Shown here in pieces: positions 3,958 to 15,378 of a stretch of 64,000 nucleotides of DNA; position 1 is the stretch's first letter, and each line of letters starts with the position of its first letter. The DNA comes from an uncultured virus (IMG/VR IMGVR_UViG_3300017963_000243) (taxonomy: Duplodnaviria; Heunggongvirae; Uroviricota; Caudoviricetes). Both the position numbers and the translations under genes were made by a program. The stretch lies in IMG/VR virus record IMGVR_UViG_3300017963_000243, positions 1 through 64,000 of that record, one strand, 5' to 3'. The notes under the pieces were generated by a model, which was not told where the DNA came from, made no database searches, and saw nothing but the letters and a program-made list of their open reading frames with translations.

Positions 3958-4416
3958 TTACTTGGCTGCCGTGGCCTGCTCCAACAAGAAAATTCCGGTG
4001 CCTCCGCTGTTCAAAAAAACAGGGATGTCTGCAACTCCGAACGGCCCAGCTCCTATGCCGGTACTCCCCACTATCCCAGGAGTATTCCACTTGACACCCG
4101 CAGGTCCTGATACGTATAGCGCCTGGCCTGAAGGAATAGCGAAGGGGCCTCCCATTAACCGGATGGACGCGAATCCCCACCGCGGAACGAGCAGGTACAC
4201 GACATCCAATAGCGTCAAGGTCGATGTAGGGCTATCCCAAGACATGTCCCCGTAGGTTTGAGGCCCCAAAATGATGCCGATACGCTGCTGCGTCATCATG
4301 ATCTCGATATCGAGATCCGACATCTGACCTTCGTATTGCTCGTCCCACGGATCGAGATCTGCAGCGGGATACCGAATGTTCAAGTTGGAAGTGTATCTGT
4401 AGTTCGGGTCAGCCAT
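3958..4416 (-). CDS. tail-fiber-like paralog 3
   Basis: Shares the MADP..T.nL.l.YP..dldPwD N-terminus with the two upstream ORFs. Confidence 0.55.
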   Translation of the reverse strand: MADPNYRYTSNLNIRYPAADLDPWDEQYEGQMSDLDIEIMMTQQRIGIILGPQTYGDMSWDSPTSTLTLLDVVYLLVPRWGFASIRLMGGPFAIPSGQALYVSGPAGVKWNTPGIVGSTGIGAGPFGVADIPVFLNSGGTGIFLLEQATAAK

Positions 4417-5963: not shown

Positions 5964-6731
5964 CTATTGGTTTTCGTACAGCCGACCGGCGAGGTGTCCG
6001 TATCCGCGTTCGTAAAGATCGGAGAGGGTGTTTGCACGTTCGCGCGCTTCCCGCATCCCTTCGAGGGTACCTTCGCCTCCACCGAGAGCAGCTCCAGCAA
6101 TCTGGGATTGGAGACGTGAGCTAGTGTCCTCATCCTCACCACCCCCGAGACCACCCAAAGCGGCTCCTGAGAGAGCACCTTCGAGTCCACGCTCCGTCAT
6201 GAGCTCCTTCATGAGCCCTTCACGAATGTCTCCGTACTCTTGGGGTGTGAGCGGCTGCGCCGTCTGCTCTTGGATACCGCGAGCATGCGGTACGAGCCCC
6301 TCATGCGTGCCGTAAGGCATATGACGCGGAACGCGACCTTCCTGAGCAATCTCACCGAGGGTTGTCCCCCAACGCTTTCCGTGACGCTCAGCACCGCTAC
6401 GGCGCGATAAACCGCTCAAGGCACCAAGCCCACCGCCCCCGAGGAGACCCAGGCCGCCTCCGATGAGCGCACCCTTTCCTCCTCCGAGTCCGTATCCGAG
6501 GCCGCCTCCCAAGAGTCCTCCGAGGCCACCCCCGACGATGCCTCCCGTGGTGGGAGCATCACGGTGACGTTCGTAGCCTTCTTGGCCCTTCATCTTGGAA
6601 AACGCCTGGATCTCCTCAGGAGTAATTTCACGCCGCTTATTCCCCGTGAGGGCTGCGGCGATATCTTCTTCCGTGATCTCAGCCAACTTGGTCATCACTT
6701 CGCGGTAACCTTGAACAAATGCGGGATGCAT
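5964..6731 (-). CDS. glycine-zipper protein, probable virion internal protein (start revised to 6731)
   Basis: GGLGGLLGGGLGYGLGG repeats, N-terminal KLA motif, TATACTT motif and SD GAAGGAGG. Confidence 0.7.
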   Translation of the reverse strand: MHPAFVQGYREVMTKLAEITEEDIAAALTGNKRREITPEEIQAFSKMKGQEGYERHRDAPTTGGIVGGGLGGLLGGGLGYGLGGGKGALIGGGLGLLGGGGLGALSGLSRRSGAERHGKRWGTTLGEIAQEGRVPRHMPYGTHEGLVPHARGIQEQTAQPLTPQEYGDIREGLMKELMTERGLEGALSGAALGGLGGGEDEDTSSRLQSQIAGAALGGGEGTLEGMREARERANTLSDLYERGYGHLAGRLYENQ

Positions 6732-12526: not shown

Positions 12527-12913
12527 TTAGGTGCCGAAGAGAAGGGACGATGCTCGACGCGTAGCGTCTTGTAGCCATTCCTGAAGTTTTTCAGCTGCTT
12601 CCAAGTCGATACCTTCGTCCTTAGCCATCTTGGCAACCTCTTCCTGGATCTCTGCAACCTTGAGGAGGTTCTCTGCGTAGGTTCCATCCTGATCCTTCTC
12701 TAGCGGAGTAACCATGAAGTCCGGAACGACGGTAGGCGCATCTTGGTCCCTTCGGAGCATCCAAAGCTTCTCAGGATCGAGGGATATGGTTATACCCCGG
12801 TAGTGTACTTGATCTGTGTGCGTCTCCCTCACGGGGAACCTGACAGAGATGCGGCACTGTCGTCCCGAGCTCGGGATGATGTTGATGATAGGTTCCCCTA
12901 TGATGTACGCCAT
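12527..12913 (-). CDS. hypothetical protein (start revised to 12913)
   Basis: SD AGGAGG directly after the tRNA-Gln CCA; begins MAYIIGEP. Confidence 0.65.
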   Translation of the reverse strand: MAYIIGEPIINIIPSSGRQCRISVRFPVRETHTDQVHYRGITISLDPEKLWMLRRDQDAPTVVPDFMVTPLEKDQDGTYAENLLKVAEIQEEVAKMAKDEGIDLEAAEKLQEWLQDATRRASSLLFGT

Positions 12914-12922
12914 GGTTCCTCC

Positions 12923-12998
12923 TGGATGGGGCAGAGGGACTCGAACCCCCAACACTCGGCACCAAAAGCCGATGATCTACCAGTTGATCTATGCCCCA
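12923..12998 (-). tRNA. tRNA-Gln(UUG)
   Basis: Acceptor TGGGGCA/TGCCCCA; arm TCGGC-TTTTGGT-GCCGA; encoded CCA. Confidence 0.95.
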
Positions 12999-13009
12999 AG
13001 AAAAAAAGG

Positions 13010-13352
13010 GGACAGGCGCCCCAGAGCTTGGATAGTCGGATATCGGGTAATCGCAGCCGCGCTTCTTCCAGCTTCATAACTTCCACTGAAAGCTAGATCG
13101 CGGCGTTTCGGTTGTTCGTGCAGTCGGTACAGTCGGACGTTCGGAGTTCGGCTGTTCACACAGTCGGAGTTCCTGGTCCATGAGACACGCCGTGTGAGGG
13201 CGCGTACCGTGTGGGGTGAGGCTTAAAAGGCCAATCCACATGGGCTGTACTTCATCTTTTTTCAAATGATGATATCGATCCGCAACGATGTCACCGGCGA
13301 CACCTACGGCTTAGGGTGCCGTGCAAACCCTTGCTCTGCGCTACGCCTGTCC
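13010..13352 (-). ncRNA. putative ~345-nt structured RNA with internal ~8-nt periodic repeats
   Basis: Terminal stem GGACAGGCG/CGCCTGTCC plus CAGAGC/GCTCTG followed by a U-tract; internal hairpins; nine CCGA(A/C)Y-like units at 13106-13174. Confidence 0.7.
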
Positions 13353-13376
13353 TATGTAGTACGCTCTAGGAGCGTT

Positions 13377-14015
13377 CTACACCGAGAAGTTGTCGAGAAC
13401 CGTCTTGGACACCTCGACCTGGGTGTCCCAGTTGGTCTTCTGGATGCACGCGTCCACCTCCCGCAGCTTGCGCTGCAGCGTGTCGACGACCTGGAAGGGC
13501 TTGAGCTCCGAGGGAGCCTTGCGCTTGACCTTGGTCACCAGGTCCCCCAGACCGTCGGCGATGGGGACGCGCTCGGAGATCTCCTGGAAGAGCTCCTCCG
13601 CCGAGACGCGGAAGTTGTGGGGGGCCGGGGCGCGGCGGATGCGATCCTCGAGCTCCTTGCGCCGGACGAGCAGCTCGGCCAGCTTGACGGTGGCGGGTCC
13701 CGTGGACGCGACCTCCTCGTCCGACATCAGGTCGTGGGTGACCTCGACGTCCGTGACCCAGTTGGCCTGCTGCACGACGCTGTCCGCGAGGCGCCGCTGG
13801 TGCGCGTAGTAGTTGGTCTCCTTCTCCAGGAGGCCCTTGTCCACCAGGCTGACGTGACCGACCACCTGGTCGATCTCGTCGTTGACCTTGCGCCGCTGGA
13901 CGCTGTCACGGGTGATACCCGCCTCCTGCGCTCCCAAGCGTCCGCTGAAGAGGGCGTTGAGCTCCTTACGACGCAGGAGCAGCTCAGCCAAGGCGATTTT
14001 CTTCTTGTCGGTCAT
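13377..14015 (-). CDS. DIP1984-like protein with two tandem repeats (start revised to 14015)
   Basis: LAELLxRRKEL...NWxTxVEV occurs twice; SD AAGGAGGT; very strong GC3 codon bias. Confidence 0.7.
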   Translation of the reverse strand: MTDKKKIALAELLLRRKELNALFSGRLGAQEAGITRDSVQRRKVNDEIDQVVGHVSLVDKGLLEKETNYYAHQRRLADSVVQQANWVTDVEVTHDLMSDEEVASTGPATVKLAELLVRRKELEDRIRRAPAPHNFRVSAEELFQEISERVPIADGLGDLVTKVKRKAPSELKPFQVVDTLQRKLREVDACIQKTNWDTQVEVSKTVLDNFSV

Positions 14016-14096
14016 GATCCGTACCTCCTTCGTAGTTCTGAGACGCGAAAGCGTCCGATAGGGGAAAGTACGGACTTGTACCTCCTTTGAGACTTG

Positions 14097-14110
14097 TTTT
14101 TCAAAGAGCA
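14097..14110 (-). promoter_or_regulatory. boxA-like antitermination site
   Basis: TGCTCTTTGAAAAA matches the rrn boxA consensus. Confidence 0.65.
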
Positions 14111-14243
14111 CTCTGTAGGAAGCAAGGCTCCCATTACACCTTATTACAGACTATTGCGCGCCCACCTGTGGTCTGAACATGAGTACCACATGCCCGTCAG
14201 ACCCTACCGTGCAGGTACTTGGTCTAGTCTCGCGCACCGATAG

Positions 14244-14317
14244 TGACCCCGGCGGGGCTCGAACCCGCAATCTTCGGCGTGAAAGGCCGATGTCCTAAAC
14301 CATTAGACGACGGGGCC
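14244..14317 (-). tRNA. tRNA-Glu(UUC)
   Basis: 5' end GGCCCCGTCGTCTAATGGTTTAGGAC; arm TCGGC-CTTTCAC-GCCGA. Confidence 0.95.
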
Positions 14318-14546: not shown

Positions 14547-14932
14547 TGGTGGAGCCGCCGGGAGTCGAACCCGGGTCCGCCTACGGGTCATGTACTGATC
14601 TTCACGTGTGTGGTCTCCCTTTTCGTTTCAGACGGTGACTTCCGAGAGACGAGTCATCACGGTCTTACTGCGCTTTCGTTTACCCGGCGTCATCGCGCAG
14701 AACTCAGCCTGGGTTTGCCCGTGTAATTACGCCCCCTGGGTTACTCGAGCTCCTCACTCAGGGCACGCCCGCGCCGTTTAAGCGGCCACGGCGAGCGGAC
14801 TCGCCATGGGGGTCGGGAAGGGAACTACGTTGTCGGCAGTTCGAGTTGAGTGTCCTTTTTAACCCGCCGAACACACAAGGCGGAACACGCACAGTACACT
14901 TCCATCGCACACGTCGAAACCGTGTCGGCCCC
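14547..14932 (-). ncRNA. ssrA: tmRNA
   Basis: 5' GGGGCCGACACGGTTTCGAC, 3' GGTTCGACTCCCGGCGGCTCCACCA (G3-U70); tag ORF 14837-14778 ADNVVPFPTPMASPLAVAA*. Confidence 0.95.
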
Positions 14933-15305: not shown

Positions 15306-15378
15306 TAGCGGGGACCGGATTCGAACCGGCGTGACGGGATTATGAGTCCCGCGACTGAAACCACTCGTCTACCCCGCA
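15306..15378 (-). tRNA. tRNA-Met(CAU), initiator-like
   Basis: Loop CT-CAT-AA; mismatched 1:72 pair (U.U) and A11-U24. Confidence 0.9.

Follow-up and report, generated by a model that had tools for sequence, protein, structure and literature searches.

A protein gene and a repeat RNA in a tRNA cluster

The stretch of DNA analyzed here, called the window throughout, comprises 64,000 nucleotides (nt) from an uncultured virus of the Caudoviricetes (positions 1 to 64,000 of IMG/VR record IMGVR_UViG_3300017963_000243, which is 78.6 kb long and 44% complete according to CheckV). It contains a gene for a protein of 212 amino acids (aa), followed directly by a repeat-bearing RNA of about 345 nt (Table 1; all features listed there are on the minus strand, and coordinates are those of the whole window). 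Comparison with other phages identified a folded RNA family that is linked to this gene and is characterized by a pseudoknot, a palindromic helix (P3), a periodic array of short units and, frequently, a tRNA-shaped module.

The gene and the RNA are embedded in a cluster of tRNA genes and a transfer-messenger RNA (tmRNA) gene. On the minus strand, the order is tRNA-Met, tmRNA, tRNA-Glu, the 212-aa gene, the repeat RNA, tRNA-Gln, tRNA-Pro and more tRNAs, and tRNA-Gln abuts the 3' end of the RNA both in the window and in the related locus L004. A gene copy with 100% identity was found on a 179-kb metagenome contig (L006), which equals the window locus.

The RNA is folded and its helices covary

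The 377-nt stretch subjected to folding reaches -141.6 kcal/mol, compared to -115.7 +/- 5.8 kcal/mol for shuffled sequences (z -4.49), and none of 100 shuffles was as low. Conservation of the fold was assessed with L003 and L004, which encode proteins 60% and 52% identical to the window protein. In the alignment of the three loci, 19 of 59 predicted pairs stay paired despite changes on both sides, including most of P1, and both closing helices, P1 and P2, are maintained through such two-sided changes. By eye, a P2-equivalent pair is also seen in L180 (UUGAGC/GCUCAA), and ACCAYGC precedes the 3' strand of P2 in relatives. In other family members P1 is often very long. Against shuffled flanks, the duplex between 5' and 3' sequences had z below -3 in 25 of 51 relatives and below -2 in 30 of 51, and the RNA length thus implied has a median of 337 nt.

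A preliminary description of this DNA, made from its letters alone, had proposed an RNA with paired ends. The folding energy and the covariation of P1 and P2 in two distant relatives bear it out, and the base pairing that it gave for the two closing helices is exact. The U7 tract, the hairpin closed by GCCGCG/CGCGGC and the nine units of about 8 nt that it listed are likewise all present in the sequence. The pseudoknot, the palindromic helix and the tRNA-shaped module were beyond what could be seen from one sequence.

The pseudoknot and P3 lie in the 5' domain, for which a covariance model (R1) was built that covers 61 positions of this domain rather than the whole RNA. Pseudoknot stem S2 and P3 were evaluated together in 62 distinct sequences, with 500 column shuffles as the null model. 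In total, 93.3% of the cells are paired, versus 53.0% in the shuffles, none of which reached the observed value; the alignment had been fitted to the S2/P3 structure under test, which favors it, and the margin is very large. The covariation score was 0.956, versus 0.202 after shuffling and at most 0.10 with the partners slid. All 11 pairs, including the 5 of S2, vary on both sides, and for P3 alone 98.9% of the cells are paired. A second model (R2), which was aimed at the register of pseudoknot stem S1, left that register unshifted. S1 was then scored by a script that allowed loop L1 to have 2-5 nt. Perfect Watson-Crick pairing at four of four positions was found in 58 of the 62 sequences, compared to 22.9 +/- 2.9 (maximum 31) with shuffled partners, and L1 has 3 or 4 nt in 61 of 62. 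The pairs alternate between AGGC/GCCU, AGGU/ACCU, AAGC/GCUU, GGGU/ACCC and GAGU/ACUC.

P3 has the additional property of being self-complementary through its center. Among 57 distinct segments of even length, the central 4 nt form a Watson-Crick palindrome in 52, while 1 in 16 would be expected (P about 7e-57), and all 57 are palindromic once G-U pairs are counted. Complementarity extends from end to center in 44 of the 57. The central sequences are diverse (GGCC in 16, GCGC and CCGG in 12 each, also UGCA, ACGU, GUAC, AGCU, GAUC and others), and the rule is obeyed by the window (GGUGUCGCCGGUGACAUC), by L003 and L004, and by the Vibrio phages described below. A hairpin has no need for a self-complementary loop, and the four central bases are unable to pair inside one hairpin, so an intermolecular P3 duplex is the simplest reading. 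From the sequences, P3 would thus be predicted to form a duplex of 16-18 bp between two molecules, making the RNA a homodimer.

The nearly invariant GUUGC after P3 has no pairing partner that we could find. By eye, a small hairpin with a conserved ACNGUAAA loop follows it in many relatives (about 5-25 nt past the 5' domain in L223, L226, L210, L219 and L194), and the window has at that place a hairpin with an A-rich loop, CAUC-AUUUGAAAAAA-GAUG. Upstream of P1, a hairpin at the place equivalent to the small hairpin of the window is also visible by eye in L003 and L004. Further downstream, the hairpin that interrupts the array is replaced by a different hairpin in L003 and by none in L004. At the 3' end, a terminator-like site was reported at 13022-13009, and U tracts are found in L003 and L004 as well, while the Vibrio phage version has none. 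A 63-aa open reading frame (ORF) within the RNA (13074-13265) is, by eye, not conserved in L003. A 96.7-kb contig from another sample is a further relative of the RNA; it matches 13303-13364 only (62 nt, 5' domain), with 8 differences, and diverges in both flanks. Apart from it, the contigs recovered from four DNA sequencing runs were near-identical.

Table 1. Features of the repeat RNA and its surroundings in the window (MFE, minimum free energy; SD, Shine-Dalgarno sequence).
Feature	Position	Strand	Basis or remark
tRNA-Met	15306-15378	minus	ARAGORN and Rfam
tmRNA	14547-14932	minus	Rfam (110.5 bits) and ARAGORN; gene separate from the repeat RNA
tRNA-Glu	14243-14317	minus	ARAGORN and Rfam
212-aa protein gene	13377-14015	minus	ORF and SD AAGGAGG
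Small hairpin ACGCUC-CUA-GAGCGU	13361-13375	minus	between stop codon and RNA; MFE fold
Repeat RNA, about 345 nt	13010-13352	minus	directly 3' of the 212-aa gene
P1, outer closing helix, 5' strand, GGACAGGCG	13344-13352	minus	pairs with 13010-13018
P2, inner closing helix, 5' strand, CAGAGC	13333-13338	minus	pairs with 13022-13027
H-type pseudoknot	13306-13330	minus	covariation across 62 distinct sequences
Pseudoknot S1, GGGU with ACCC	13327-13330 with 13314-13317	minus	L1 = UUGC
Pseudoknot S2, ACGGC with GCCGU	13318-13322 with 13306-13310	minus	L3 = UAA
P3, GGUGUCGCCGGUGACAUC	13287-13304	minus	self-complementary through center CCGG; candidate RNA-RNA dimerization duplex
GUUGC after P3	13282-13286	minus	nearly invariant columns in family alignments
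Variable middle domain	13175-13281	minus	three hairpins by MFE fold; no tRNA-like part
Repeat array, nine units of about 8 nt	13104-13174	minus	sequence; CCGA enrichment
Hairpin closed by GCCGCG/CGCGGC, interrupting the array	13056-13104	minus	sequence and MFE fold
Last repeat units, AUUACCCGAUAUCCGACUAUCCAA, ending in (A)CCAY junction	13028-13051	minus	conserved in L003 and L004
P2, 3' strand, GCUCUG	13022-13027	minus	covaries in relatives
P1, 3' strand, CGCCUGUCC	13010-13018	minus	compensatory changes in L003 and L004
U7 tract	13001-13007	minus	likely intrinsic-terminator tail or 3' end
tRNA-Gln(UUG)	12923-12998	minus	starts just 3' of the U tract; ARAGORN and Rfam

A periodic array of octamers

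The nine units of the window array read, in order, AGGAACU CCGACUGU GUGAACAG CCGAACU CCGAACGU CCGACUGUA CCGACUGC ACGAACAA CCGAAACG. The tetranucleotide CCGA occurs eight times in the RNA, versus 1.9 times in mononucleotide shuffles, and none of 2000 shuffles reached eight. Nowhere else on this strand of the whole window is CCGA clustered as densely (6 per 120 nt, versus a mean of 0.56).

The array is not confined to the window. We analyzed the 300 nt past the 5' domain in 65 distinct RNAs of the family for enriched words, which were picked without prior choice. The words at the top were CCGA (5.5-fold), UCCGA (14.7-fold) and CCGAUU, CCGAAU and CCGACU (27-28-fold). Exact CCGA is present with a median of 5 copies per RNA (range 1-10), and the distances between neighboring copies cluster at 7-9, 14-16, 22-24, 30-31 and 38 nt. 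Such clustering indicates a lattice of about 7.7 nt in which degenerate units, NNGAAC for example, stand between the exact copies. The consensus unit is YCCGAHU, and the nine units of the window fit the lattice. By the criterion of CCGA spacing, the periodic array noted in the preliminary description is therefore real and a property of the whole family.

A tRNA-shaped module in many relatives

Between the 5' domain and the array, most relatives carry a tRNA-shaped module. Among the 65 RNAs, a T-loop motif was found in 46, and ARAGORN called a tRNA in 22. The anticodons of the embedded tRNAs are varied (Ile in nine, Gln in four, also Ser, Thr, Asn, Arg and Leu; the four tRNA-Gln are within the RNAs of L194, L223, L214 and L174), and several modules score 50-61 bits with the Rfam tRNA model. 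Sorting by crude patterns for the D and T arms, which capture motif order only, assigned 19 of the 65 to the standard order (D arm before T arm) and 12 to a circularly permuted order, in which a T arm is followed by a closed acceptor-like hairpin and a D arm, an arrangement as in YrlA RNA. The remainder have a T loop only (15) or neither motif (19). Since one shape is found in two topologies, selection appears to act on the tRNA elbow and not on decoding, as far as the sequences suggest.

Two of the modules weakly match the YrlA model (L161 1148-1255, 32.4 bits, E 0.004, and L186 1913-2018, 29.7 bits, E 0.026, with a gathering score of 69). A permuted tRNA mimic in L167 (1899-1968) weakly matches the Rfam tmRNA model (E 2e-4). 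Neither ARAGORN nor Rfam at E up to 10 detected a tRNA or tRNA mimic in the window RNA, and L003 and L004 are likewise devoid of the module.

The adjacent protein

The 212-aa protein is a tandem of two units resembling DIP1984/DUF6847 (about residues 1-100 and 105-212). The motif LAELLxRRKEL...NWxTxVEV is present in both halves, and its columns are invariant in an alignment of 12 homologs. A single-unit profile also matches both halves of the proteins in L003, L004 and L006. The ORF, its good SD and the duplicated motif, all pointed out in the preliminary description, are present as described. The same text had named the DIP1984/DUF6847 family, a call that turned out roughly right. The Pfam family DUF6847 (PF20935) includes the protein, with matches in two stretches at 33.9 bits (cut-off 27, E 3.7e-8), and the fold agrees as described below, whereas the NCBIfam family DIP1984_fam (NF038048) does not include it (35.5 bits, cut-off 70).

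An AlphaFold2 model based on the 12 homologs (pLDDT 87.6, pTM 0.71) has two long helices in each half and the order beta-alpha-beta-beta-alpha-beta. Its sole clear structural match is PDB entry 3kdq, a protein of unknown function from Corynebacterium diphtheriae (Foldseek probability 1.00, E 6.7e-4, TM by target 0.70). VIA also assigns the model to the 3kdq fold (Z 11.8, 151 of 152 residues aligned), and its next-best matches are generic helical hairpins with Z of at most 7.8. Other resources gave little. A sequence search of the PDB returned only 3kdq (E 0.35), PHROGs returned only families of unknown function (E 0.003 or weaker), the ESM Atlas returned only hypothetical and DUF6847 clusters (scores of at most 0.88), and PADLOC had no match for the protein. 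In the full-text literature, DIP1984, DUF6847 and PF20935 gave nothing, and 'septicolysin' was found solely as an annotation label.

The single-unit form of the protein is predicted to be a homodimer (ipSAE 0.49, versus 0.00 for the best control), with at least 81% of contacts in common between runs and pLDDT of at least 74. In the benchmark of this procedure, 20 of 30 proteins solved as pairs reached the mark, as did 1 of 23 solved as single chains; these counts are only roughly valid here because our own alignment was used. The predicted interface is made up of the two stretches that are best conserved across the family, namely the N-terminal strand and the region of IQQANW at the C terminus. 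Such an interface is in agreement with the tandem fusion of two units in the window protein.

Distribution and linkage of gene and RNA

A word-index search yielded 11 two-unit proteins with 46-96% identity, and three distinct loci could be read past the gene. The RNA directly follows the two-unit gene in all three, namely the window (= L006), L003 and L004. Using tblastn across 50,697 GenBank phage records, we found a single-unit gene in 13 Vibrio podophages of the family Zobellviridae, and only in those. It encodes a 99-aa protein and is located after the gene for an SF4 helicase and before two small sigma-like genes. In all 13 records, the same RNA is present in the unannotated 300-370 nt after the gene. 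The closing helices, a palindromic P3 and GUUAC are all present, GGGUUUG...ACCC has a partner stem in which both strands have changed, and the array is composed of units of the CAUCCGAAUU type. The RNA runs straight into the ribosome-binding site of the next gene.

Larger collections contain many more relatives of the protein. A profile search of 1.84 billion representative proteins returned 123 at E up to 1e-3, and a scan of IMG/VR with the single-unit alignment at least 119, of which 80 loci were kept for RNA counts. Those from the profile search come in one of two forms, with two units (about 205-230 aa) or with a single unit (about 100 aa). Model R1 matches 74 of 85 sources, among them 71 of the 80 IMG/VR loci as well as the window, L003 and L004, always on the strand of the gene and with a median gap of 39 nt between gene and RNA. 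There is exactly one gene copy in each single-unit locus (82 of 85 loci), and there are two domains in the three two-unit loci. The claim of the preliminary description that protein and RNA are a pair is thereby upheld, as their adjacency is conserved in very distant phages.

The flanking genes vary. Primase-helicase, clamp loader, SSB, Gp2.5-like, exonuclease, RuvC and Sak4 genes were found at some loci, and minor head, scaffold, tail chaperone and endolysin genes at others. As the neighbors differ from locus to locus, gene and RNA travel as a unit.

Canonical cellular DIP1984/DUF6847 genes were detected in 11 of 301 Actinomycetes genomes, and five weak protein matches in 401 Planctomycetota genomes. 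One genome of the Actinomycetes sample (G656) has an intact DUF6847 copy and a second one that is broken by two TGA codons. Among 14 control genomes, only Deinococcus radiodurans has a canonical DUF6847 gene. Plasmids had no match for the protein, and a subset of a very diverse protein alignment found nothing in IMG/VR.

Pattern searches for the RNA itself did not extend the family. Scanning with the GGGTTTGCACRGCACCC pattern picked up 12 viral and 116 genome stretches, among which only the already known loci were real by nhmmer. Four further loci retrieved by a second 5' pattern were unrelated, and a 3' pattern retrieved known loci only.

Comparison with known RNAs

No family of Rfam 15 matches the window RNA, either in the whole window at gathering scores or in 12900-14300 at E up to 10, where the hits were the flanking tRNAs and chance-level matches only. 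In searches that covered the main text of papers, no publication on such an RNA was found. YrlA-Ro, ROOL/GOLLD and TRAP-type binding each share one feature with the module described here, and membership in each is excluded by test.

The YrlA RNA and its partner Ro60 (Rsr; RF02553) are similar in that the two ends of the RNA form a closing stem and that the RNA is encoded beside a dedicated protein partner. Many members also carry a putative tRNA mimic, which in 12 of 65 would have the permuted order of YrlA, as judged by motif order only; the window RNA lacks it. The partner here differs, having a DIP1984 fold with about 100 aa per unit in place of a TROVE-domain Ro protein, and the RNA is about three times longer, with the pseudoknot, the palindromic helix and the octamer array in addition. 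RF02553 did not match anything in the window, even with E up to 10 admitted. Among the eight neighbors of the RNA scanned in the window there was no TROVE gene, the adjacent gene being DUF6847-like.

ROOL and GOLLD often occur in phages and close to tRNAs, and a tRNA can be nested within GOLLD. ROOL, GOLLD and OLE are reported to form homo-oligomers (PMC12286853). Like the RNA described here, for which the palindromic P3 likewise predicts self-association, they are large structured RNAs of unknown function. With about 340 nt, the present RNA is the smaller one, and it differs further by its periodic array of single-stranded units and by its link to one particular protein gene. The Rfam models of ROOL, GOLLD and OLE matched neither the window nor, at E up to 0.1, any of 20 relative loci.

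When TRAP binds (G/U)AG repeats, and also in CsrB/RsmZ and CrcZ, an oligomeric protein contacts each copy of a short motif with one of its subunits. The array resembles these RNAs in having many single-stranded copies of a short motif at regular spacing. It differs in its unit (YCCGAHU at about 7.7 nt), in the fold of the protein and in being placed inside a large closed RNA, and binding is putative here. The phi29 packaging RNA (pRNA) is a structured phage RNA whose copies associate through base pairs between molecules and which functions together with an assembly of phage proteins. The present RNA is also phage-encoded and structured, with predicted self-association, but it has no sequence or structure similarity to pRNA, and most of its neighbors are replication and not packaging genes. 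The tmRNA model (RF00023) gave no match to the repeat RNA at E up to 10. As for the protein, cellular DIP1984/DUF6847 proteins (3kdq) are the only clear fold match, and the Pfam match is above the cut-off; the phage unit is shorter (about 100 aa) and occurs singly or in tandem, and the RNA companion is found only in phages.

Interpretation and alternatives

We are confident that both the RNA family and the link between RNA and gene are real. The adjacency of gene and RNA is tight and ancient and has persisted in changing contexts, which argues for a direct partnership, and direct binding of the protein to the RNA is probable. That the octamer array serves as the binding platform for the protein is a more tentative proposal, and any specific host target is much less certain. 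Overall, we lean towards a self-contained phage ribonucleoprotein (RNP), composed of a small dimeric DIP1984-fold protein and the directly following structured noncoding RNA of about 300-380 nt.

In such an RNP, two RNAs would pair through P3 to give a dimer with two-fold symmetry, onto which the protein homodimer (in the window a fused pseudo-dimer) would load. It would most likely load along the octamer array, each domain occupying one unit, as for TRAP on its triplet repeats. The preliminary description had likewise suggested one repeat per protein subunit, or else an RNA that might template or measure an assembly. The particle might then work as a scaffold or decoy of the Y-RNA type and present a tRNA-like elbow and/or a multivalent RNA surface during infection, perhaps towards the tRNA- or RNA-processing machinery of the host or towards defenses directed at tRNAs. 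In the most far-reaching version, which we regard as conceivable but rather doubtful, the module would represent a new class of phage RNP. RNAs of about 340 nt, dimeric via P3, would display tRNA elbows and 8-12 octamer sites that polymerize the protein into a symmetric particle of defined size, and phages of many lineages would use it to capture or disarm the tRNA/RNA machinery of the host.

Several observations weigh against a self-contained RNP. With a median pI of about 6.0 and a net charge of about -1 to -3, the proteins are close to neutral, unlike typical RNA binders, and the best-conserved residues (LAEALLRRKEL at the N terminus and IQQANW at the C terminus) map to the predicted dimer interface and thus do not by themselves mark an RNA site. 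Linkage is also not perfect. R1 has no match in 9 of the 80 IMG/VR loci (L153, L164, L175, L176, L182, L196, L197, L203 and L212); L153 is of the Vibrio type, with an RNA found by nhmmer, and a second model weakly finds the RNA in L203, L175 and L196. At two loci the RNA is upstream of the gene, and at six it is 222-998 nt downstream. At cellular DIP1984 genes the RNA is absent, with no match in 17 loci (12 Actinomycetes, 5 Planctomycetota) at E up to 1. It thus appears confined to the phage subfamily, so that the expectation of the preliminary description that homologous genes have a structured repeat RNA downstream holds for the phage genes and fails for the cellular ones. Furthermore, the tRNA-shaped domain is missing from the window RNA and from the two RNAs nearest to it and therefore cannot be essential; P3 could act as a plain hairpin in vivo; and the host targets named above are a guess from anatomy.

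Some of the same observations would fit an RNA that acts alone, as a multivalent decoy or sponge whose CCGAHU array and, where there is one, tRNA mimic would titrate a host factor, with the protein as a helper, such as a chaperone or stabilizer, or merely co-expressed. Candidate factors would be an RNA-binding regulator, a ribonuclease or a tRNA-targeting defense nuclease. Multiple copies of a single-stranded motif on a scaffold correspond to the build of CsrB/RsmZ and CrcZ, tRNA mimicry in two topologies is in line with a decoy, and a protein that is not basic, with conserved residues in a dimer interface and not at an obvious RNA site, would also fit. We nevertheless consider a sponge unlikely, in view of the tight, ancient adjacency of gene and RNA in changing genomic contexts, and we know of no host factor that recognizes CCGAHU. 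Adjacency would be explained if the RNA were a cis-acting 3' untranslated region or processing cassette that stabilizes or autoregulates the mRNA of the gene, or punctuates a polycistronic or tRNA transcript. The RNA is always on the strand of the gene and in most cases begins no more than about 40 nt past the stop codon, the Vibrio version has no U tract and continues into the next ribosome-binding site, and tRNAs lying inside the RNA would be expected to draw in RNase P and RNase Z. An RNA of about 340 nt with pseudoknot, palindrome, closing helices and array exceeds, however, what stabilization or punctuation would need, the RNA in the window has a terminator-like end of its own, and the loci with an upstream or distant RNA do not fit, which makes a cis element improbable.

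Two further explanations can be given even less weight. Replication genes often adjoin the locus, and short direct repeats next to a perfect palindrome are reminiscent of a replication origin with 8-bp iterons, for which the adjacent protein would be the initiator. Such a DNA-level element is very improbable, given that the pseudoknot covaries, as do helices whose strands are about 300 nt apart, that the orientation is fixed relative to the gene, that a period of 7.7 is unlike the DNA helical repeat, and that tRNA genes are embedded. A toxin-antitoxin or abortive-infection pair of the type III kind, in which the repeat RNA neutralizes a protein toxin, would also combine a protein gene with a repetitive RNA, in a module that is mobile among phages. 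We would rate it as the most improbable of all: PADLOC found none, the units have 8 nt and not about 36 nt and are downstream of the gene inside a large folded RNA, and the protein has a DIP1984-like fold, not that of a ToxN-like endoribonuclease, so that the pair does not belong to ToxIN.

Significance

Few molecules in microbiology are understood as poorly as the large structured RNAs of phages, GOLLD and ROOL among them, and to our knowledge no dedicated protein partner is on record for RNAs of this type. The RNA described here has a conserved gene partner, together with a dimerization signature, tRNA mimicry in two topologies and a strictly periodic array, and the presence of the module in cultured Vibrio phages makes the above inferences testable at the bench. 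If the RNP interpretation is true, a protein partner would for the first time be known for an 'ornate' phage RNA, and the RNA would offer a natural scaffold of defined valency. It would also provide the first functional context for the DIP1984/DUF6847 superfamily, which is now mislabeled 'septicolysin' in many genomes and for which we know of no function.

Further observations at the locus and in L003

The tRNA cluster of the window comprises eight tRNA genes between 1632 and 15378, all on the minus strand (Lys, Leu, Asn, Glu twice, Pro, Gln and Met), with small ORFs without family match standing between them. The tag of the window tmRNA, as read by ARAGORN, would be unusually long (GQTQAEFCAMTPGKRKRSKTVMTRLSEVTV, a putative call), and ARAGORN reads nearly the same tag in the tmRNA of L003 (2141-2526). 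A second CCGA cluster of the window, at 6400-6540 on the plus strand (6 per 120 nt), may be coding sequence. In L003, an ORF is found between the repeat RNA and tRNA-Gln (4085-4300, plus strand), a place at which the window has no counterpart. Its product begins with MDKHILEKLVEQRK and has Cys pairs, and the ORF may be an inserted mobile gene.

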